Origin: an uncultured Bacilli bacterium
GTDB taxonomy: Bacteria; Bacillota_I; Bacilli_A; RF39; UBA660
Direction of reading: 5' to 3'
DNA: 32,000 nt
Assembly: GCA_947629205.1 (NCBI GenBank)
Contig: CANRCV010000005.1
Location: 24,193 to 56,192, forward strand
Shown: one piece after another, positions 1-22,968 of the stretch
Position numbering within the stretch: the first letter of the stretch is position 1
Layout of the letters: each line of letters opens with the position of its first letter
Made by a program: the position numbers and the translations under genes
The notes under the pieces: generated by a model
The model's database searches: none
What the model saw: the letters and a program-made list of their open reading frames with translations, nothing else
Told to the model about the DNA's origin: nothing

Positions 1-228
1 ATGTGTAATAATCAAAATAACAACACAGAAAATACAAGTTGCATTGCTGAAATACTAAATGTTATTTTAGTTCTTCAACAAAATGCTTGTCCAGATAGTT
101 GTTTAGATTCTTGCGACAGACCAATGCTTGGTGGTGGACCAAATTGTCTTATTTGCAATACTAGACCAATAATGCTATATACTTGCTGTGGTAATGGAAC
201 TCCATGCCTTTGTACAGGAACAAGGTAA
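1..228 (+). CDS. CotZ/CotY/ExsY-family spore coat/exosporium protein, N-terminal half (gene interrupted by insertion)
   Basis: The product is Cys-rich and has the family N-terminal layout (SCIAEILNVILVLQ ... CPDSCLDSC ... NTRPIMLY). The ORF stops one codon after the AAGGT core at 222..226. Its C-terminal half is found at 7272..7505. Confidence 0.8.
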   Translation: MCNNQNNNTENTSCIAEILNVILVLQQNACPDSCLDSCDRPMLGGGPNCLICNTRPIMLYTCCGNGTPCLCTGTR

Positions 229-367
229 AATTATAGTTTTTTTAAAATTGCACTTTAACACAATTTAAGTTTTTAATAATAGATAGAATAAAAAGTATAG
301 TGTGAATAATAGCCATAGCTTAAAAAGGGCTATTTTATATTTTATAGAAAGGAATAAGTGTAATTTT

Positions 368-937
368 ATGGAACAAAGAAATTGTATAAAAAAATTAAAA
401 ACATATAATAAGAGAGTATCTTATGGTAAACTATTAGAAAAAAGGATTATATATTTGAATGGTAAGATTGATGATATACTAGCAGGAGATATAATATATC
501 TGCTTTTTAAATTTGATATGGAAAATCATAAAGACATAACAATGTTTATTAATTCTATAGGAGGTTCAGTAAGTAGTGGACTTGCTATATATGATGCTAT
601 GAATTTAATAAAAAGTAATATTGTAACAATCGGTATTGGAAGGTGTACTAGTATGGCGAGTATTTTATTAATTAATGGTACAAAGGGAAAAAGGTGTTTA
701 ATGCCAAATGCAGAGGTTATGATACATGAAATATCTTATCATACTGGTGGGACAATTACTGATATATATGAGTCTTTAGAGCATTCTAAAAAAGTAAATG
801 AAAGGCTTCTTCATATTATAGCCAATAAAACGAAAAAAAGTTTAGGACAAATAAGAAGAGAAATTGAAGGTAAAGATGTATGGATAAATGCAGATATGGC
901 CTTAAAATACGGCTTTGTTGATAAAGTGTTAAGATAA
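368..937 (+). CDS. ClpP-family serine protease paralog
   Basis: The product shows the ClpP pattern RIIYLNGKIDD ... INSIGGSV ... GRCTSMAS (Ser) ... MIHE (His) ... GKDVWINADMALKYGFVD (Asp). The start is uncertain: a GTG at 302 is possible, but the ATG at 368 gives a typical ClpP N-terminal length. Confidence 0.85.
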   Translation: MEQRNCIKKLKTYNKRVSYGKLLEKRIIYLNGKIDDILAGDIIYLLFKFDMENHKDITMFINSIGGSVSSGLAIYDAMNLIKSNIVTIGIGRCTSMASILLINGTKGKRCLMPNAEVMIHEISYHTGGTITDIYESLEHSKKVNERLLHIIANKTKKSLGQIRREIEGKDVWINADMALKYGFVDKVLR

Positions 938-956
938 TACAAGGGAGTGGTAGTAC

Positions 957-1274
957 ATGAAAAATGAAATAAACGATATTATAAAAATGATTGACAAACA
1001 CTTTAAAAAAGTAGTATGGAATTCTGAACCACCAGTTCATGAAACTGATATGAATTTACTAGTATTAGCAACTAAAATAATTGCTATGCGTGATACTATA
1101 GAAACTATTGATATAAAAAAATCAGTAGATAAATTACTTGCAGACATGCAAAAAACATTTCATATGCCTTATTATAGTAATGAAATTCAACAATGGTTAG
1201 ATAAAGACATAATGAGACATTCTTTAATATTAAAAATATATGAGAAGATAGGAGCCCTTCGTTATTACTATTAA
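957..1274 (+). CDS. hypothetical protein, likely co-transcribed with the ClpP paralog
   Basis: A GGGAGTGG ribosome-binding site lies 7 nt upstream of the ATG, and the gap from the clpP-like stop is 19 nt. I recognise no motif in the product. Confidence 0.6.
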   Translation: MKNEINDIIKMIDKHFKKVVWNSEPPVHETDMNLLVLATKIIAMRDTIETIDIKKSVDKLLADMQKTFHMPYYSNEIQQWLDKDIMRHSLILKIYEKIGALRYYY

Positions 1275-1307
1275 AAATTAATTTCTAGGCGAATTTCTTT
1301 CATTTAG

Positions 1308-1329
1308 TATAATTGGGTTATAATTGGGT
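1308..1329. repeat. perfect tandem duplication of TATAATTGGGT (2 x 11 bp)
   Basis: The copies were read directly at 1308..1318 and 1319..1329, in the intergenic region upstream of the XRE gene. Each copy contains a TATAAT hexamer. Confidence 0.6.
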
Positions 1330-1438
1330 TAAAATGTCTGAAAACGTATAAAAATACATAAATTAAGCAAACTTATAGGCGACATACAAATTTCAATTTA
1401 TTTGTCATAATAATCACAAGGAATGTGGTGAGGCTATT

Positions 1439-1675
1439 TTGAATATTTATGATAAGAATACGTTATCTCATTTAGTAAGAAAGAATATTCGTAAGTATCG
1501 TAAAATGAGAGGATATACTATGCAAGAATTAGCAGACAAAACAGGTCTTACACACCAATATATTAGAGATTTAGAATGTTTAAATGTAGATAAAACACCA
1601 ACACTTGAAAGTTTGGGAAAATTTGCAAATGCTTTAGAAATAGACATAAGACAATTATTTGATGATATAGATTAA
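1439..1675 (+). CDS. XRE-family helix-turn-helix transcriptional regulator
   Basis: The product has an HTH_3 pattern (IRKYRKMRGYTMQELADKTGLTHQYIRDLE). The start is TTG, 6 nt after a GGTGAGG ribosome-binding site. Confidence 0.85.
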   Translation: MNIYDKNTLSHLVRKNIRKYRKMRGYTMQELADKTGLTHQYIRDLECLNVDKTPTLESLGKFANALEIDIRQLFDDID

Positions 1676-1679
1676 AATG

Positions 1680-2462
1680 TTATTCAGTAATTGTTAAACT
1701 ATCTAAATAGATATTTTCGTTAGACATTGTAAAAGTAAGCAAATAAGTATTAAATAAATCTTGATTTTTGGTTGCAATTTTATCAAAATCACACTCTAAA
1801 AAATCATAGTAATCATAGGAGCAAAATTCATTTTTTGATAACTTTGTTATGATTGGATTAGTTTGATTTTGAGCATCTTCGATAGTTTTATATAATTCTT
1901 TAGGTTCTTCCCCTGTATCTAAATATGCAGTATACATTCTAGTAAAATAGACTAATACTTTATCTTCTTTTTTTGTGGCTTTGATTACGGTATTATAACT
2001 ATTAAGGTCGCCTACACCATGACCATAAGGAGATTGAACAAAAGATTCGGTTTTAGCATTGTAAGAGTATAGTATATCGTTATCGTAAGGTGAATATAAA
2101 TTTTCCATATCAATAGTAGCATTTTCACCAAAATATTTTTGAGTAATCATTAATAGATTTTCTTTTGTTAATGACAATTTTGAACCATCTCCCATATACT
2201 CATTATTAGATATAATATTGAATATAATTTGTAATTTTTGTTGATTATCTAGGTCATTGAATGAGAAATTTTCTAAACTATATGGAATACTACTCAATAA
2301 TAAATTGATTTTATTTGTTTCGTTATCGCTTAATGTATATTCTTCTTCCACTATTTCGTGAGTTTCATTAGTAGTATCAACGTTATTGTTAGACATTTCT
2401 TTAGTATTACAGCCAGTTAAACAAATAATACAGATAAATAAACTTATAAATTTTTTTAACAT
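1680..2462 (-). CDS. lipoprotein, function unknown
   Basis: The signal peptide has a lipobox (MLKKFISLFICIICLTGC). A GGTGA ribosome-binding site precedes the ATG at 2462. The ORF track starts 4 codons earlier. Confidence 0.75.
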   Translation of the reverse strand: MLKKFISLFICIICLTGCNTKEMSNNNVDTTNETHEIVEEEYTLSDNETNKINLLLSSIPYSLENFSFNDLDNQQKLQIIFNIISNNEYMGDGSKLSLTKENLLMITQKYFGENATIDMENLYSPYDNDILYSYNAKTESFVQSPYGHGVGDLNSYNTVIKATKKEDKVLVYFTRMYTAYLDTGEEPKELYKTIEDAQNQTNPIITKLSKNEFCSYDYYDFLECDFDKIATKNQDLFNTYLLTFTMSNENIYLDSLTITE

Positions 2463-2556
2463 AATTATCACCATTTCCTATTACAATTATTGCATAATTA
2501 TTTTTTAGGAGCAAGGGGAATGATAGTTTAATATGTAAAAAAATGTCGCCTGGCGG

Positions 2557-2585
2557 TTGAAATGCAAAATGGTTTATGCTAAAAT
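2557..2585 (+). promoter_or_regulatory. sigma-A-type promoter candidate for the membrane-protein genes
   Basis: TTGAAA (2557..2562), a 17-nt spacer, then TAAAAT (2580..2585). Confidence 0.4.
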
Positions 2586-2613
2586 CTTTATAAGAAGGAA
2601 GTGAGAAAATAAT

Positions 2614-2967
2614 ATGGCGTTAATTAAATGTAGCGAATGTGGAAACGAGATAAGTGATGAGGCGGCAATATGCCCTCAGTGTGGACATGATTTGTATTCT
2701 AATCAAAAAGTGAATGATGATGAAAGTAAAAAAGGTACGTATGGTTTAGTGGGAATGATATTAGGATTGTGTTCGATTATAGCATGGATTATTCCTCTTT
2801 TTGGATATCCATGTACGATTGTTGGAATTGTATTTAGTGCAAAAGGTTTAGAATCAAAAAATAAAAATAAAGCAATAACAGGATTAGTTTTATGTATTAT
2901 ATTTTTAATATTTACTTTAATTAATTCTATAGTTGGTGCTGCAATAAGCACTGAAGGTTATTATTAA
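2614..2967 (+). CDS. zinc-ribbon protein with DUF4190-like transmembrane region
   Basis: The N-terminus has a CxxC...CxxC ribbon (CSECGNEISDEAAICPQCG), followed by two hydrophobic helices of the DUF4190 type. Confidence 0.75.
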   Translation: MALIKCSECGNEISDEAAICPQCGHDLYSNQKVNDDESKKGTYGLVGMILGLCSIIAWIIPLFGYPCTIVGIVFSAKGLESKNKNKAITGLVLCIIFLIFTLINSIVGAAISTEGYY

Positions 2968-2985
2968 CAAAAGGAGTGAAAAAAT

Positions 2986-3246
2986 ATGAAAGAAAATAAT
3001 AAAGGATTAGCAATCGCGGGACTTGTAATTAGTATCGTTAGTATATTTATATTTCCAATACTTGGTATTTTGTCAATTATTTTTGGAGCGATTGTAATTA
3101 ATACTAATGAAAATAAAGAACCATGGTTTAAACCAGTTTGGAAATATAAAAATAAGACTTTAGGATATGGTAGATATTCTTTATTAGTTGGAATTATTGA
3201 TATTGTATGGGTTGTAATCAATTATTTTATTTTAATGGCAATGTAA
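2986..3246 (+). CDS. small DUF4190-like membrane protein
   Basis: A GGAGTGA ribosome-binding site is present. The hydrophobic core GLAIAGLVISIVSIFIFPILGILSIIFGAIV is typical of the family. Confidence 0.7.
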   Translation: MKENNKGLAIAGLVISIVSIFIFPILGILSIIFGAIVINTNENKEPWFKPVWKYKNKTLGYGRYSLLVGIIDIVWVVINYFILMAM

Positions 3247-3324
3247 TTTTTAGTTTATCTAAATATTAGTTTATTAAATATTTGAAAATATAACAAATAA
3301 AAGGATTTTTAGAGGAAAAAATTT

Positions 3325-3771
3325 ATGAAAAAAGGAATAATTGCATTAGTTATAGTTTTATCTATAATTACTATTGGAATAGTGGTATTTTATAAATCCC
3401 AAAATAGTTATCTTGGTTCTTATGTTTCAGAAAATGGTTCTATAATAGTTTTAAAAGAAAATGGAAAATGTGAGATTACAGTTGTAAATACAGTAGTATA
3501 TACCAATAGTAATACTTGTACTACTGGGAAATGTTCTCAACTTGTAGGTGGTTCAAATTATCACCCTGGTCTTCCAAGTAATTATGTTTCTAAACGTAAT
3601 GAAACTAGTAAAGCAACTAGTTGTACTTATGAGTTTTATAAAGATTATATATTACTTACTCATAATATTGATTATGTTCAAACCAATAAATATAACTTTT
3701 CCGAACATTATAAATATCTAACATGGGAAGGGCAAGGAAAATTATATAAAAAAGACAATACTAAAAAATAG
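3325..3771 (+). CDS. membrane-anchored or secreted hypothetical protein
   Basis: An N-terminal TM/signal segment (MKKGIIALVIVLSIITIGIVVF) is present, and a GAGGAAAA ribosome-binding site lies upstream. Confidence 0.65.
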   Translation: MKKGIIALVIVLSIITIGIVVFYKSQNSYLGSYVSENGSIIVLKENGKCEITVVNTVVYTNSNTCTTGKCSQLVGGSNYHPGLPSNYVSKRNETSKATSCTYEFYKDYILLTHNIDYVQTNKYNFSEHYKYLTWEGQGKLYKKDNTKK

Positions 3772-3807
3772 TATAATTATTTGAGATACCATTATATTTA
3801 ACGTTAA

Positions 3808-3844
3808 AAAGATATAAAAATAAAGATTTTATATCTTTTTTTTT
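3808..3844 (+). terminator. intrinsic terminator
   Basis: A perfect 12-bp stem (aaagatataaaa / ttttatatcttt) with a 7-nt loop is followed by a T-run. Confidence 0.7.
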
Positions 3845-4187
3845 ACAAAAAATTATGTATTGCTAAAAGTTAGCCATAGTAAAACCATATAATGTAATAG
3901 AGAGCTTAAAAGAAAAATTAAAAATGTTTTAAATATTTAATGAAATAAGCTTTAATGATGATTAAAAAATGTAAAAAAAGTGTCAAAAAATGTCGATTTT
4001 TCAAAAAAAATAAACATTTTGTAATTAGAAAATATAAAAGTACGCTTTTCGAACCATATAGTTATAATAGGACAAGGATGAAATTGTCTTTAACTATTCA
4101 TAAAAGCAAAAATATCTTTTGTGAATATATAGGAGGTGATATACATGTAATCGTGAAGATACCCAAGGATAACAAGGAATAACTCAA

Positions 4188-5090
4188 TAAGCTAAGACTA
4201 CTCATTTGTAATCATAGTGAGGTGGAATGCGTCCTTGCGATGTCCTATACCCCAGCAACTTAGATGACAAAAATAGAAATAAGGTACATTTGATTTTGGT
4301 ACTACTTGCATAAGCGAAACGCAGACAACACAGATGCCAAGACTTAATACTGTTTACCAGTAGTGGAACCCGAAGCTTCAGAGGACTGCACTTGTGAAGC
4401 ACCTAGTAGGAGCCCTGTTAGTAGAAAACTAATAATACTTACTAGAGTACCAAGTAGTGGGCGGAAACACCAGCTCCCAGATACCGTGTCGTGGCGTTGA
4501 CGGTGGAGAGTGCAGGGATAAAGAACCATAGACGACAAAAAATATTACTATAATGAAGACTTATTAAAATTCTTATTAGACTATTTCCATTTATTCCGCT
4601 ATTTCCATTTATTAGTAGACTTCCATTTCTATTTTGAGGAAGATTTAAAATTTGAAGAGGAGATAGCAAAAAAGGAAGAGGAGATAGCACAAATTAATTT
4701 TATTAAGCTAATAGAATGTTAAAACTATTAGCACCAGTTGTGGGGGGATAAAGTAATAGCACCCCTACTAGGGTACAGTTTAACTTTAGATTATTTATTT
4801 ACATAGCAACTCAAAGCGATTTATCGGATTGTAGCACACATTATTTAATTTATAAGCTAATAGCATGCTAAAACTATTAGCACCGGCAGTAATATAATCT
4901 TATAGTCATTCTTGACTTGAGATACTGAGGTACAGTTGAGCAATAGTAATTATCTTTATAAGTTGATAGAATGCTAAAACTATCAACACCAGCAGTAGTA
5001 AAGTCAAGCAAACATAACTGTCTTGACATACTGGGGTACAGTTCAGCTAAAGTTTATTAAACAGGAGAGTGGATACTCCTAAGAATAAAC
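4188..5090 (+). ncRNA. large structured RNA candidate, class unassigned (GOLLD/ROOL-like in size and context)
   Basis: The block has no credible ORF and is much richer in G+C than its flanks (4190..4545). It contains many local helices. A long helix with U-G pairs works only on the + strand. Three tandem modules show stem covariation. A hairpin (gtttatt/aataaac) closes the block at 5052..5090. Confidence 0.5.
4704..5043 (+). repeat. three tandem structured modules (4704..4780, 4853..4937, 4959..5043)
   Basis: Each module starts TAAGYT. It then has an 8-bp hairpin with the conserved loop AATGYTAAAA or CATGCTAAAA, followed by CACC(A/G)G, a variable long hairpin (CAGTA...TACTG) and a terminal GGTACAGTT. 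Confidence 0.7.
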
Positions 5091-5513
5091 ATATCCAAAC
5101 AATTTGATTCATTAATTATATTGAATCACTAACTATAGTTGCTAAATCTTATGATAATTTGATTAAGAATATTCTAAATTTATTTCCATGGAATAGATTA
5201 TTCTTATATCATAAAGTGACTATTAAATTATTTAACTTTAAACAATAAAAAATTTACTAACAGTACAACAGGATACTCTAGTAAAATTAAATTGTTTGAT
5301 AGTTTATATTATGATAGACATAGACCAGTTGTGTAGAAATGTATACAGCTATGCAACTGGTAGTATCTATCATTAATTTTATTAAATGTACAAAATATAA
5401 ATTTGAATCTAAAAAGCAAAAATAAATTATAAATCCGCAAAAAATAAAAAATAAAAATCATAAAAGTGATTTTTGCTTTACACATTCAATAAAATTAAAT
5501 AGGAGATGAGGAT

Positions 5514-5630
5514 ATGTTAATAAAAAATTACTACTGTGTGAACGGTAAAACGTTCCAAGAGATTATGGAAGAATTCTTTATTCAATACTGTAATAGAAAA
5601 ATAAATACGGATATTGTGAAATATGCTTAA
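5514..5630 (+). CDS. small ORF (38 aa) immediately upstream of the recombinase gene
   Basis: An AGGAGATGAGG ribosome-binding site precedes the ATG. The product is MLIKNYYCVNGKTFQEIMEEFFIQYCNRKINTDIVKYA. I recognise no family. Confidence 0.35.
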   Translation: MLIKNYYCVNGKTFQEIMEEFFIQYCNRKINTDIVKYA

Positions 5631-5680
5631 AAACGTTATAATAGTAATTGTTAAAGTGCAATTATCTATGAGGAGGTATA

Positions 5681-7234
5681 ATGAGAGATAATAGCATATT
5701 TAATGTAGGTCTGTACTTGCGTTTATCTAGGGAAGATGAAAATACAATTGAAAGTGAAAGTATTAGCCATCAAAGACTTTTATTAGAAGATTATGTCAAA
5801 GTCAATCGTTTTAATCTAGTTGATGAATATGTTGATGATGGATATACTGGAACAAATTTCACTAGACCAGATTTTAATCGTTTAATTAGAGATATCGAGG
5901 CTGGTAAAATTAATTGTGTAATTACTAAAGATATGTCTAGATTAGGTAGAGATTATATCTCTACAGGTTGGTATTTAGAAAAATACTTTCCTGAGCATAA
6001 TGTCCGCTTTATATCAATAAATGATAACATTGATACTATTACTGGACAATTAGATGATGTAGCACCTTTTAAAGCCGTAATCAATGATTATTATGCTAAA
6101 GATATATCAAATAAAGTTAGAACATCTATTACCGCTATGAAAAAACGAGGAAAATTTCTTGGAGGTATTCCACCATATGGTTATAAGTTTGCAAGTGAAA
6201 AAAATCACCAACAATTAGTTATTGATGAGGTAGTTGCTCCAGTAGTTCGTAGAATGTTTCAAATGTATGCTAATGGAAAAAGCCTTTATGAAATAGCAGA
6301 TACTTTTAATCAAGAAAAAATTCCCATTCCAAGCATCTATAAAAACATAAAACGTAAAAAATCAGAGGCTTATGGTTTATGGCAAACAAGAACTATTGAT
6401 GAAATTCTAAAAAATCCTACATATATAGGTAATTTAACCCAAGGTAGAAGAAGAAAAGTTAACTATAAAAGTAAAAAAATTGTTAGACTACCTAAAGAAG
6501 AATGGATTGTTGTAGAAAATACTCATAAACCAATTATTGACAAAGAAACTTTTGATAAAGTTCAAAGCATTTATGAAAAGAATAAAAATAGAAAATGTAC
6601 TAAAAACAATGTTCTATTTGGAGGCTTTTTATATTGTAAAGAATGTGGACATAAAATCGGTATAAATAAGACACATGAAAAATATTACTGTTGTTGTAAT
6701 TACTACAAAAGATTTTCAAAACAAGGTTTATGTACACCTCATTCTATTCCTTATGATTTATTAGAAAAGGAGTTATTAACAGAAATTCGTAAAGAATGTA
6801 AGAAAAGTGTTCGAGAAGAAAAGTTTCCAGAACTATTAAAAAACAATAACAAGAAAAAACAAGCCATTGATAATATTACCAAATTAATTGCTAAAAAGAA
6901 CTTAGAGATAGAGCAAAATAATAAAGCAGTGGATGATTTATATATTGCTAAATTAAAACAAGAATTAGATAACGACAGGTATAAAAGTATTTATAACAGG
7001 TTAAATGAAGAATTAAATAAATTAAAAAATGAACTACACATTTTAAAAAACGATTACAACAAGTTAGCAAATGAAGAAAACGAAAGTAATCAAATAGCCG
7101 ATATGACAATGATTAAAGAGTTCTTAGAATTAAAAGAACCATCTAGAGAATTAATGGCTAATTTAATAGACAAAATTGTAATTGATGAAGATAAACATAT
7201 TAGTATTTATTACAAAATTAGAAGGTATAGTTAA
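5681..7234 (+). CDS. large serine recombinase (SpoIVCA/TndX-like)
   Basis: The product has a resolvase catalytic domain (GLYLRLSREDE ... DDGYTGTNFTRPDFNRLI ... VITKDMSRLGRD), a recombinase domain, a Cys-rich zinc ribbon (CKECGHKIG...CCCNYY...C) and a long coiled-coil C-terminus. A GAGGAGG ribosome-binding site is present. Confidence 0.95.
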   Translation: MRDNSIFNVGLYLRLSREDENTIESESISHQRLLLEDYVKVNRFNLVDEYVDDGYTGTNFTRPDFNRLIRDIEAGKINCVITKDMSRLGRDYISTGWYLEKYFPEHNVRFISINDNIDTITGQLDDVAPFKAVINDYYAKDISNKVRTSITAMKKRGKFLGGIPPYGYKFASEKNHQQLVIDEVVAPVVRRMFQMYANGKSLYEIADTFNQEKIPIPSIYKNIKRKKSEAYGLWQTRTIDEILKNPTYIGNLTQGRRRKVNYKSKKIVRLPKEEWIVVENTHKPIIDKETFDKVQSIYEKNKNRKCTKNNVLFGGFLYCKECGHKIGINKTHEKYYCCCNYYKRFSKQGLCTPHSIPYDLLEKELLTEIRKECKKSVREEKFPELLKNNNKKKQAIDNITKLIAKKNLEIEQNNKAVDDLYIAKLKQELDNDRYKSIYNRLNEELNKLKNELHILKNDYNKLANEENESNQIADMTMIKEFLELKEPSRELMANLIDKIVIDEDKHISIYYKIRRYS

Positions 7235-7271
7235 GTTAAATGTTTATCTTGTTTAGTAACAAAGGTGGAGT

Positions 7272-7505
7272 ATGCCAACTACAAAAGATTCAACAGCAAC
7301 TTGTAGTGAAGCAAGTACAACTTGTTCTAATGTATTTAGAGTAGAAAAAGTGGATGGAAATTGTTGCACTTGTCGTGTTCTTGCAGATAATCCAGATACC
7401 ACTAGCTTAAATCCATACATTGCTACAAATTCATTTTTTACAATTAGTTTAGATTGCATTTGTGCTATTCGTTGTTTAACCGATACATTTGTAGAATGTG
7501 TATAA
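7272..7505 (+). CDS. CotZ/CotY/ExsY-family protein, C-terminal half (coding frame is open from 7266 after joining)
   Basis: Family C-terminal motifs are present (NVFRVEKVDGNCCTCRVL and FFTISLDCICAIRCL). The frame is continuous with 1..225 if the element is removed. Confidence 0.8.
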   Translation: MPTTKDSTATCSEASTTCSNVFRVEKVDGNCCTCRVLADNPDTTSLNPYIATNSFFTISLDCICAIRCLTDTFVECV

Positions 7506-16686: not shown

Positions 16687-16763
16687 GGCCTGTTGGTGAA
16701 GGGGTTTAACACGCCACCCTCTCAAGGTGGTATTCACGGGTTCGAAACCCGTACAGGCTACCA
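16687..16763 (+). tRNA. tRNA-Glu, anticodon CUC, CCA encoded
   Basis: A manual cloverleaf gives acceptor ggcctgt/acaggct (G1-U72), anticodon stem ccacc/ggtgg, loop c-t-CTC-a-a, and T arm acggg-ttcgaaa-cccgt. The sequence is near-colinear with the Bacillus tRNA-Glu sequence as I recall it. Confidence 0.85.
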
Positions 16764-20296: not shown

Positions 20297-22459
20297 ATGA
20301 AAATAATTAAAAGAGACGGACATATGGTTGACTATAGTCCAGAAAAAATTGAAAATGCTATTTTAAAAGCAAATATGGAGGTAGAGGAAGAAGACCAAGC
20401 AAGTTCCACTCAAATACGTAATATTATTAAGTATATTGAAGGCTTGGGTAAAAAAAGAATGCTTGTAGAAGACATTCAAGATATTATTGAAAAAAAATTA
20501 ATGTCTATTGGAAAATATGAACTAGCAAAAAAATACATTACGTATCGTTATACAAGAGAATTAGTAAGAAAAAGTAATACGACGGATTTAGCTATAAAAG
20601 AATTAATTGATGGTGAAAATGAATATTGGAATACTGAAAATTCAAATAAAAATGCCAAAGTCGTGACAACCCAAAGAGATTATTTAGCGGGGATTACCAG
20701 TACCGATATTACAAGAAGATTTTTACTACCAGAAGATATCGTTCGAGCTCATGATGAAGGAATTATTCATTTCCATGATGCCGATTATTTTGCACAAAAT
20801 GCTTTACATAACTGTGATTTAATTGATTTAGAAGATATGTTACAAAATGGAACGAATATTAATGGGGTCATGATAGAAAAACCACATCGTTTCTTAACGG
20901 CGATGACCATTGCTACCCAATTAATTACTGCAGTGAACTCTAGTCAATATGGTGGATGTACGATTACTTTAACTCATTTAGCACCCTTTGTAAGAGATAG
21001 TTACAATAAATATTTAGAAAAATATAAAGCACGTAATTTTTCAAAAGAAGATTGTGAAAAATATGCCAAAGAAGATTTAGCAAGAGAAATAAAAGATGGT
21101 GTTCAAACCTTCCAATATCAAATTAACTCTATGACCACAACCAATGGGCAAGCACCATTCTTAAGTGTTTGTATGTATTTAGGAGAAACCGAAGAATATA
21201 AAGAAGAGCTTGCGATGGTTATTGAAGAGGTTTTAAAACAAAGAATTGAAGGAATGAAAAATGAAAAAGGTGTTTATATTACACCAGCATTTCCAAAACT
21301 TCTTTATGTACTTGAAGAAGACAATATTCATGAAGATAGTAAATATTGGTATTTAACAGAACTTGCTGCTAAGTGTACTGCCAAAAGAATGGTACCGGAT
21401 TATATTTCGGAAAAAGTTATGAAACAATTAAAAATTGATAAAAATGGTAATGGAAATTGCTACCCTTGTATGGGATGTAGAAGTTTCTTAACACCATATG
21501 TAGATGAAAATGGAAAACCAAAATACTATGGACGTTTCAACCAAGGGGTTGTTACCATTAACTTAGTGGATGTTGCTTTAACCAGTGATAAAGATAAAGA
21601 CCTATTTTGGAAAATCATGGATGAAAGACTAGAACTTTGCCACCGTGCTTTACAAGTACGTCATAAAAGACTTTCGAAAGCAACAAGTGATGTAGCACCA
21701 ATTCTATGGCAATATGGAGCCCTTGCTAGACTTAAAAAAGGAGAATCAATCCACGATTTATTACACCATGGTTATTCAACGATTTCTTTAGGGTATGCAG
21801 GACTTTATGAATGTGTTAAATTTATGACCGGACATAGTCATACGGATAATGGAGAAGGGAAAGAATTTGGTTTAGAGGTCATGCGTCATTTAAACGATGC
21901 TTGTAACAAATGGAAAGAAGAAGAAGACATCGATTACAGTGTTTATGGAACCCCTATTGAATCAACAACGTATAAATTTGCCAAAGCTTTAAGAGAACGT
22001 TTTGGAGTTATTAAAGGTATCACTGATCGTGATTATATTACGAATAGTTATCATGTACCTGTGTTTGAAGAAATCGATGCTTTCACCAAATTAAAATTAG
22101 AAAGTGAATTTCAAAAATTAAGTCCAGGTGGAGCTATTTCGTATATTGAAACACCAAACTTAACCAATAACTTAGATGCCGTTATTGAAGTCATTAAATT
22201 TATTTATGATAACATTATGTATGCAGAATTAAATACAAAGAGTGATTATTGTCATGAATGTGGTTATACGGGAGAAATTCTAATTGATGATAATTTAGAG
22301 TGGTATTGTCCAAACTGTGGAAATAGAGACCATGATAAAATGAATGTAGCAAGACGTACTTGTGGTTATATTGGAGCGAATTTCTGGAATAAAGGAAGAA
22401 CACAAGAAATTAAAGAAAGAGTTATTCATATTGATAATAAAGATTTAGAGGAAGCCTAA
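20297..22459 (+). CDS. nrdD: anaerobic ribonucleoside-triphosphate reductase
   Basis: It has an N-terminal ATP-cone (IIKRDGHMVDYSPEKI), a C-terminal zinc site (CHECGY...CPNCG) and the glycyl-radical motif RRTCGYIG. Confidence 0.95.
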   Translation: MKIIKRDGHMVDYSPEKIENAILKANMEVEEEDQASSTQIRNIIKYIEGLGKKRMLVEDIQDIIEKKLMSIGKYELAKKYITYRYTRELVRKSNTTDLAIKELIDGENEYWNTENSNKNAKVVTTQRDYLAGITSTDITRRFLLPEDIVRAHDEGIIHFHDADYFAQNALHNCDLIDLEDMLQNGTNINGVMIEKPHRFLTAMTIATQLITAVNSSQYGGCTITLTHLAPFVRDSYNKYLEKYKARNFSKEDCEKYAKEDLAREIKDGVQTFQYQINSMTTTNGQAPFLSVCMYLGETEEYKEELAMVIEEVLKQRIEGMKNEKGVYITPAFPKLLYVLEEDNIHEDSKYWYLTELAAKCTAKRMVPDYISEKVMKQLKIDKNGNGNCYPCMGCRSFLTPYVDENGKPKYYGRFNQGVVTINLVDVALTSDKDKDLFWKIMDERLELCHRALQVRHKRLSKATSDVAPILWQYGALARLKKGESIHDLLHHGYSTISLGYAGLYECVKFMTGHSHTDNGEGKEFGLEVMRHLNDACNKWKEEEDIDYSVYGTPIESTTYKFAKALRERFGVIKGITDRDYITNSYHVPVFEEIDAFTKLKLESEFQKLSPGGAISYIETPNLTNNLDAVIEVIKFIYDNIMYAELNTKSDYCHECGYTGEILIDDNLEWYCPNCGNRDHDKMNVARRTCGYIGANFWNKGRTQEIKERVIHIDNKDLEEA

Positions 22460-22968
22460 TGCGATATAATAAAATAAGAAAGATGGATATTTCTAATGGT
22501 CCAGGAGTACGCGTTTCTATCTTTATGCAAGGTTGTGCCTTTCATTGTAAAAATTGTTTTAATCCAGAAACACATGATTTTAATGGAGGAAAAGAGTTTA
22601 CAGAAGAAACAATTCATAAAGTTTTAGAACTTTGTAAAGAAGATTACATTGTAGGTTTATCCATACTTGGAGGAGAACCCATGCATCCTAGTAATATAGA
22701 AGGAACAACAAAACTTGCTCGTGCTTTTAAAGAAAAATATCCAGAAAAAACATTATGGGTATGGAGTGGTTTTCTATTTGATCGTGACTTAAAAGATAAA
22801 GATGTCTTAAAGTATGTAGATGTTTTAGTTGATGGACAATATGTAGATGAATTACATAATCCAACATTAGATTGGAGAGGTTCATCTAATCAAAGAGTGA
22901 TTGATGTAGCAAAAAGTTTAAAAGCCAATCAAGTTGTGTTATATGAAAAAGAACTTCAAACAATATGA
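22459..22968 (+). CDS. nrdG: anaerobic ribonucleotide reductase activating protein (radical SAM)
   Basis: It has the CxxxCxxC cluster (CAFHCKNC) and its start overlaps the nrdD stop. Confidence 0.9.
   Translation: MRYNKIRKMDISNGPGVRVSIFMQGCAFHCKNCFNPETHDFNGGKEFTEETIHKVLELCKEDYIVGLSILGGEPMHPSNIEGTTKLARAFKEKYPEKTLWVWSGFLFDRDLKDKDVLKYVDVLVDGQYVDELHNPTLDWRGSSNQRVIDVAKSLKANQVVLYEKELQTI

Follow-up and report, generated by a model that had tools for sequence, protein, structure and literature searches.

A G+C-rich non-coding block within the element that interrupts a cotZ-like gene: a candidate orphan RNA

Introduction

The stretch of DNA analyzed here (32 kb in all, hereafter the window) comes from an uncultured Bacilli bacterium and contains, at positions 4190-4545, an island of unusually high G+C content that carries no credible gene. 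The question raised by this locus is whether the block is the core of a large non-coding RNA (ncRNA), as its composition might suggest, or whether it is a protein-coding region, an intron, a site acting at the DNA level or merely foreign DNA without function. The large ornate RNAs GOLLD and ROOL occur on prophage-like elements (PMC5737381, PMC12286853), and the block is like them in being an ORF-free, G+C-enriched island of several hundred nt, of unknown function, on a mobile element of an AT-rich Firmicute.

Results

The block is cargo of an element that splits a cotZ-like gene

The preliminary description of this DNA placed the block within an intervening element, and our analysis bears this out. 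An element of ~7.0 kb separates the two halves of a CotZ-like spore-coat gene (N-terminal half, 1-228; C-terminal half, 7272-7505), and the core AAGGT occurs at both junctions (222-226 and 7262-7266). Judged from the sequence, joining the halves at AAGGT would restore the reading frame (...T-R-W-S-M-P-T...). The right end of the element carries a large serine recombinase, whose homologs (61-71% identity) lie between CotZ halves in other assemblies. Since the CotZ gene is split, the AAGGT junction is in frame, a serine recombinase is present and relatives of the element also lie between CotZ halves, we assign the element, by its sequence features, to the sporulation gene-intervening elements and predict that it is excised. 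To our knowledge, no long non-coding cargo of the kind discussed here has been reported for the published members of this class. These include skin in sigK, SPbeta in spsM, gin in gerE and yin in yabG (PMC5595907, PMC4191935, PMC10747680), with which the present element has in common a split sporulation gene, a large serine recombinase at the element end and halves that join in frame; it differs in that the interrupted gene is CotZ-like.

Using the recombinase homologs, we obtained 12 related loci, which have nothing in common beyond the CotZ halves, the recombinase and an ORF of 38 aa. The cargo differs, and in sister elements consists of an AAA_25 protein, a reverse transcriptase or RelB/ParE toxin-antitoxin pairs. 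The 38-aa ORF, located directly upstream of the recombinase, is kept in all related elements (a gene of 37-38 aa is called there in most of the loci) and may be a recombination directionality factor or a regulator; searches with PHROGs and PADLOC gave no match for it. Among the cargo of the element studied here are a ClpP-family protease (302-937, + strand; Pfam E = 1e-49) and an XRE regulator (1439-1675), together with several small proteins of the membrane or zinc-ribbon type. PADLOC recognized only the XRE regulator in the element, and no cargo gene matched a known defence system. In one sister element (L009, 2899-4978; also L010 and L011), a 428-aa reverse transcriptase (RVT_1) is accompanied by an ORF of 59 aa and a gap of ~560 nt devoid of genes, a locus that is possibly a retron or a defence reverse transcriptase with an ncRNA of its own.

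Table 1. Coordinates of the block, the sequences around it and the element that carries them (positions in the window).
Feature	Position	Strand	Basis
Intervening element, ~7.0 kb	227..7266	.	Flanking CotZ-like halves, serine recombinase, related loci
Inverted repeat, left arm, 22 nt	4103..4124	.	Pair 86% complementary
Perfect Shine-Dalgarno GGAGGTGAT (4132-4140), ATG (4145-4147), TAA (4148-4150)	4132..4150	+	Read from sequence
G+C-rich ORF-free block	4190..4545	+ (strand tentative)	Composition, no coding signal, no Rfam match
ORFs crossing the block, 64-82 aa	4202-4402, 4344-4538, 4442-4690	-	
Predicted multi-branch domain, containing hairpins 4374-4400 and 4403-4444	4292..4458	+	MFE fold
GTG ORF crossing the block, 45 aa	4363-4500	+	
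Long imperfect hairpin	4573..4688	+	Direct repeats, folding energy
Module 1	4700..4786	+	91.7 bits (model R1)
Module 2, architecture as module 1	4849..4943	+	110.4 bits
Module 3, architecture as module 1	4955..5049	+	114.7 bits
Strong hairpin followed by T-rich stretch, possible 3' end of unit	5311..5373	+	Folding energy
Inverted repeat, right arm, 22 nt	5458..5479	.	Pair with 4103..4124
38-aa ORF directly upstream of recombinase	5514..5630	+	tblastn, E = 1e-5 to 3e-6
Large serine recombinase, right end of element	5681..7234	+	PF00239, PF07508, PF13408 on homologs

The block is the most G+C-rich segment of the window and is non-coding

The compositional shift that first drew attention to the block is real: at 43.3% G+C, it has the highest value in the 32 kb. 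Across 350-nt segments of the window, the mean was 27.9% G+C with a standard deviation of 3.6%, the maximum started at position 4191, and the island thus stands ~4.5 standard deviations above the mean. Structured RNAs usually have more A than U and more G than C, and the + strand of the block contains 121 A, 83 G, 81 T and 71 C (i.e., A>T and G>C).

The region from 3772 to 5680 contains no credible gene. The block had been described as crossed by minus-strand ORFs only; three overlapping ORFs on this strand do cross it, but a GTG-initiated ORF on the + strand had been overlooked (Table 1). None of the ORFs crossing the block matched Pfam, no ORF in the region exceeds 82 aa, every frame contains stops, and G+C content by codon position is flat (0.40-0.46 in all frames). 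When the stop-free frame segments (at least 28 residues) of the block and modules were compared with 5.8 billion proteins, a search that would also reveal spurious ORF calls over homologous loci, nothing was found at E<=10. The block thus has neither the phase bias nor the protein homologs of a gene or pseudogene, and a tblastn search of it for remnants of sister-element cargo genes was negative. By all of the tests run, the block is non-coding.

That unrecognized small proteins are nevertheless encoded in or across the block seems to us very improbable. ORFs of 45-82 aa do exist, and a 75-aa ORF (3955-4182) is on record as a predicted protein (NCBI; the sole match in an exact ORF look-up), its 3' end crossing the Shine-Dalgarno (SD)/ATG-TAA site described below and stopping at the left edge of the block. 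Long open runs on the minus strand are, however, expected by our estimate from the T-rich composition of that strand, the candidates match nothing in Pfam, PHROGs or the protein databases and lack a codon-phase G+C signal, and translations of the modules are altered at every compensatory substitution.

The block matches no known RNA family and shows no unusual folding energy

The preliminary description could name no RNA class for the block and called for an Rfam scan, and such scans likewise give it none. With Rfam 15 at gathering thresholds, the sole match in the 32-kb window was a tRNA at 16687, and ARAGORN, which searches for tRNA and tmRNA, identified only this tRNA-Glu (16687-16763) in the window and none in the region of the block. 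Relaxing the threshold to E<=10 on three segments (3700-5500, 4120-4580 and 4560-5100) returned spurious miRNA matches or nothing. In particular, no Rfam match to GOLLD, ROOL, OLE, raiA, HEARO or group I introns was found in the block. Despite its general likeness to GOLLD and ROOL, the block therefore differs from both in that their covariance models do not detect it, even at E<=10; it also differs in that no tRNA genes adjoin it (the only one in the window being that at 16687) and in its lack of homologs and thus of a demonstrable conserved ornate structure, its folding energy being ordinary. If it is an RNA, the block would represent a new class within a known kind, the large ncRNAs of mobile elements, and would be neither GOLLD nor ROOL.

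The two helices named in the preliminary description are present, one formed by GCTTCA (4374-4379) with TGAAGC (4395-4400) and the other by ACCGT (4483-4487) with ACGGT (4500-4504). The description of the block as dense in helices did not hold, however: after correction for the choice of window, it does not fold better than shuffled sequence. The whole block had folding z-scores of -1.1 (+ strand) and -0.7 (minus strand), and 150-nt windows sliding across it ranged from -1.6 to +1.1. The best 170-nt window had z = -2.29, a value that 2 of 16 dinucleotide-shuffled blocks equalled or surpassed. The minimum free energy fold of the + strand predicts a multi-branch domain (4292-4458) whose closing stem would pair UUGGUACU (4296-4303) with AGUACCAA (4447-4454). 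This domain has an MFE of -43.5 kcal/mol and z = -2.72 on the + strand versus -0.62 on the minus strand, values to be read with the fact that its boundaries were picked after the fold had been viewed and that the corrected test is not significant. The strand asymmetry of this domain hints at the strand of a putative transcript but proves nothing. Folding energies of the kind expected for a structured RNA were found at 4573-4688 and 5296-5392 and not in the block, so the claim that the block itself is a structured RNA is unsupported: its folding energy is ordinary. The more general lesson is that G+C enrichment by itself does not demonstrate RNA structure.

No relatives of the block were found

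Homologs of the block were sought in several ways. blastn in distant mode found no DNA match in phage and plasmid collections, three seeds from the block gave only chance matches in IMG/VR, none of which extended, and the 12 related elements contain nothing resembling the block or the modules. When the ClpP-like cargo protein was used as an anchor in IMG/VR, no relatives were recovered. Because no homolog of the block was found in the collections searched, a covariation test cannot be applied to it. An adjacent cargo protein of 148 aa had a single match, at 99% identity, among 5.8 billion proteins. The source of this match is a 1.2-kb contig (ENA sample ERZ27249148, L043) that corresponds to window positions ~2614-3850 and ends before the block. 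The cargo is thus rare, yet not confined to one assembly.

Since the cargo of the element is so rare, as illustrated by the one protein match of the 148-aa neighbour, the block could be drifting DNA. It would then be a fragment of a G+C-richer donor or a decayed gene, without function and not yet drifted to the AT-rich composition of its surroundings. Although doubtful in its own right, such an origin as inert foreign DNA is nearly as likely as an ncRNA. It is consistent with the absence of detectable conservation in any searched collection, with the ordinary folding energy of the block and with the highly variable, mosaic cargo of related elements; the cargo genes that neighbour the block are orphans as well. 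Less easily accommodated are the lack of any frame remnant (phase G+C is flat and all frames contain stops), of protein similarity at E<=10 and of sister-cargo remnants. In addition, the unique SD sequence, RNA-like modules and bracketing repeat around the block, all described below, look organized rather than random.

A strong Shine-Dalgarno sequence precedes the block

At 50 nt 5' of the block lies GGAGGTGAT, the strongest SD match in the 32 kb and present there as a single exact copy. An ATG sits at ideal spacing from it and is followed directly by TAA, giving a start-stop of one codon. STAB-SD elements stabilize cry mRNAs from the 5' side. In B. subtilis, ribosomes that initiate at a strong SD block RNase J1 (PMC5737220; hbs), and for the STAB-SD of cry mRNAs we point to a review of cry gene expression (PMC4113751). 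The site described here resembles those of hbs and cry in being a near-perfect complement of the anti-SD located 5' of a putative long RNA and not serving to make a real protein; in contrast to them, it is followed by an AUG-UAA mini-ORF and non-coding sequence, and a stabilizing role is only putative.

A translation start broken by a stop also raised the prospect that the block is a group I-like self-splicing intron, inserted between the SD and AUG (4132-4147) and a start-less frame at 4522-4719. The block is comparable to group I introns of phages and Firmicutes in its length of ~400 nt, in being G+C-richer than its surroundings and in having a translation start on one side and an open frame on the other. 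It also has, by eye, an R-like motif, UUCAGAGGACUGCAC, and a possible pseudoknot of P3/P7-like topology (4296-4303 with 4447-4454; 4388-4393 with 4510-4515). The frame that follows it on the + strand is free of stops for 66 codons, and its internal repeats (18 and 21 nt) are multiples of three. An open run of 66 codons is, however, expected about once by chance here, according to our estimate, and searches of 1.84 billion representative proteins and of PHROGs found no homolog of the peptide of this supposed second exon; neither supposed exon has homologs. For the 5' exon, there is no suitable P1/guide pairing that includes a U-G wobble, the only pairing available being CAUG with CGUG (4144-4147 with 4152-4155), which has a 4-nt loop and places the wobble inside the start codon. 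Moreover, RF00028 finds nothing at E<=10 on 4120-4580, and the block lacks AAGAUAUAGUC, the J8/7-P7 element that mainly carries the RF00028 score of our positive control.

This control was the group I intron in the lysin gene of S. thermophilus phage DT1, presumably of subgroup IA2, which was detected by RF00028 at 29.3 bits (E = 3.5e-5). Since RF00028 was silent on the block while the control was detected, we rejected the group I intron, to which we now attach hardly any probability. The control intron (L175, 4365-4499; positions 22364-22498 of the record) scores far below the RF00028 gathering score of 50, so sub-threshold searches are needed for such introns. A broader search, of 2.5 kb at E<=0.01, did not list it, and it emerged only when a narrower region was searched at E<=10.

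Three tandem modules and a long hairpin follow the block

Downstream of the block, the long imperfect hairpin at 4573-4688 is built from direct repeats: its pyrimidine-rich arm has 18-nt repeats (two clear copies and one degenerate) and its purine-rich arm two 21-nt repeats with GGAG motifs. This hairpin folds with -31.3 kcal/mol (z = -3.4) on the + strand and -22.9 kcal/mol (z = -1.7) on the minus strand. The three downstream modules noticed earlier were confirmed by their repeats, shared architecture and covariance model scores (Table 1). Each consists of an 8-bp hairpin, P1, with a conserved 10-nt loop (NAUGYUAAAA); P1 leads into ACC, after which come a variable hairpin, GGU and the conserved tail ACAGUU. 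Over the three copies, standard pairs occupy 97.9% of the cells, and 3 of 16 pairs are compensatory versus none with slid partners; in module 3, P1 has two compensatory changes (C-G to U-A and A-U to G-C). The module hairpins are real single-strand hairpins, of RNA or possibly of single-stranded DNA.

The word TAAGCT had been reported to open the block and all three modules. It does so for the block (4188-4193) and for two modules (4704-4709 and 4853-4858), whereas the third module has TAAGTT. All four + strand copies of TAAGCT in the 32 kb lie within 3946-4858, a clustering that is weakly suggestive. No sequence similarity was found between the block and modules, and the earlier proposal that they form one RNA of ~900 nt is unsupported.

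A covariance model of the module found only the three copies in the window, and module patterns based on invariant positions, exact or gapped, gave chance matches without P1 pairing in IMG/VR, GTDB species genomes and JGI metagenomes. Within the window, there was no enrichment of targets for the module loop or tail. Chance matches to the module pattern include two related metagenome contigs (L032, 1175-1244; L041, 12-81). These contigs have in common a conserved, hairpin-rich stretch (...GCAAAUCCUCAAGGCUG...) that looks like another structured RNA, unrelated to the block.

Small RNAs and RNA repeats can occur in tandem or multiple copies, for example LhrC1-5 of Listeria, Qrr and the ToxI antitoxin repeats. 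The modules are similar to these in forming three head-to-tail units of ~100 nt with a conserved and a variable hairpin and conserved single-stranded motifs, but they match no family, lack a terminator per unit and a convincing promoter, and have no toxN-like gene downstream. A type III toxin-antitoxin locus of the ToxI kind, in which such repeats would directly precede a ToxN/AbiQ-type toxin gene, was considered and rejected, as no + strand ORF of at least 40 aa is present in 5058-5514 and the next gene is the conserved 38-aa ORF.

Further 3', the region 5296-5392 folds with -27.6 kcal/mol on the + strand and -22.7 kcal/mol on the minus strand (z = -4.0 on both), and the hairpin within it, like that at 4573-4688, is more stable on the + strand, by 5-8 kcal/mol. 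Folding of the unit as a whole is nearly balanced between strands (-304 versus -300 kcal/mol), and a scan of it for promoter and terminator consensus sequences gave nothing beyond chance. The SD, block, hairpin and modules are bracketed by a 22-nt inverted repeat, whose 19 of 22 matches were equalled in 1 of 40 shuffles. Its arms could pair as the closing stem of an RNA, mark the two ends of an inserted element or serve as inversion sites. The repeat lies ~200 nt from the recombinase gene, and the motif AAAAGCAAAAATA recurs at 5412-5424.

These features could also belong to a site that acts as DNA, such as an origin of replication, a region serving as operator or for partition, or a segment that can be inverted, in which the repeats, palindromes and inverted repeats would be bound by proteins or recombined and the block would be a spacer or part of the site. 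The 18-nt and 21-nt direct repeats are iteron-like and palindromes are numerous, the AT-rich 3' part folds equally on both strands (z of -3 to -4.7) as DNA palindromes do, the 22-nt inverted repeats are close to the serine recombinase gene and an AAA_25 family protein occupies the equivalent position in sister elements. Nevertheless, the element has no Rep, Par or additional recombinase gene, and the compensatory changes in the module stems, together with the G-U-dependent strand asymmetry of the long hairpin, indicate single-strand folding. The G+C richness of the block would also be left unexplained, and we regard such a DNA-level site as improbable.

Discussion

The block lies in an organized non-coding unit, other parts of which behave like RNA structure of the + strand. 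The explanation we tentatively prefer, at somewhat less than even confidence, makes the block the G+C-rich core of an ncRNA, itself an orphan, that is transcribed from the + strand and belongs to the cargo of the element splitting the cotZ-like gene. Counted in its favor are the G+C island, the absence of a coding signal, the base skew of the + strand, the unique SD, the RNA-like neighbours, the z-scores of the domain 4292-4458 on the two strands and the bracketing repeat. Counted against it are the absence of homologs, ordinary folding, the lack of promoter or terminator consensus matches beyond chance, the dissimilarity of block and modules, nearly balanced strand energies and the rarity of the cargo. 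Transcription, strand, unity of block and modules, and function are all points that we infer, and the strand cues, though weak, favor the + strand.

If the block is indeed the core of such an RNA, transcription would enter from the AT-rich region upstream of ~4130. The perfect SD and AUG-UAA would recruit an initiating ribosome, with the result that no protein would be made but the 5' end would be shielded, in a manner modelled on the strong SD sequences that stabilize Bacillus RNAs. The segment 4190-4545 would then fold into a compact multi-helix core, and the transcript would run on through the hairpin at 4573-4688 and the three tandem two-hairpin modules. Since each module displays the conserved 10-nt loop and ACAGUU tail, the modules would offer a single partner, protein or RNA, several copies of one docking site. 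Finally, the 22-nt inverted repeats could pair, thereby closing or processing a unit of ~1.4 kb.

A more ambitious version of this proposal, that the whole of ~4103-5479 is a single new large ncRNA of the mobile element, 1.3-1.4 kb in length, we consider unlikely. Such an RNA would have a ribosome-capped 5' end, a structured, G+C-rich core and three tandem display modules that might titrate a host factor. Given that excision of the host element is predicted to take place in the sporulating mother cell, the RNA might have a role in sporulation or in maintaining the element.

At present, the block is an orphan of a single genome, and its value is that of a flagged candidate. We know of no earlier large ncRNA inside a sporulation gene-intervening element, and the block, if an RNA, would be the first. 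Should it prove to be a real RNA, it would add an unclassified member to the few large ncRNAs known on mobile elements, and the combination of an SD start-stop cap with tandem hairpin modules would, if correct, offer a design that is accessible to experiment.
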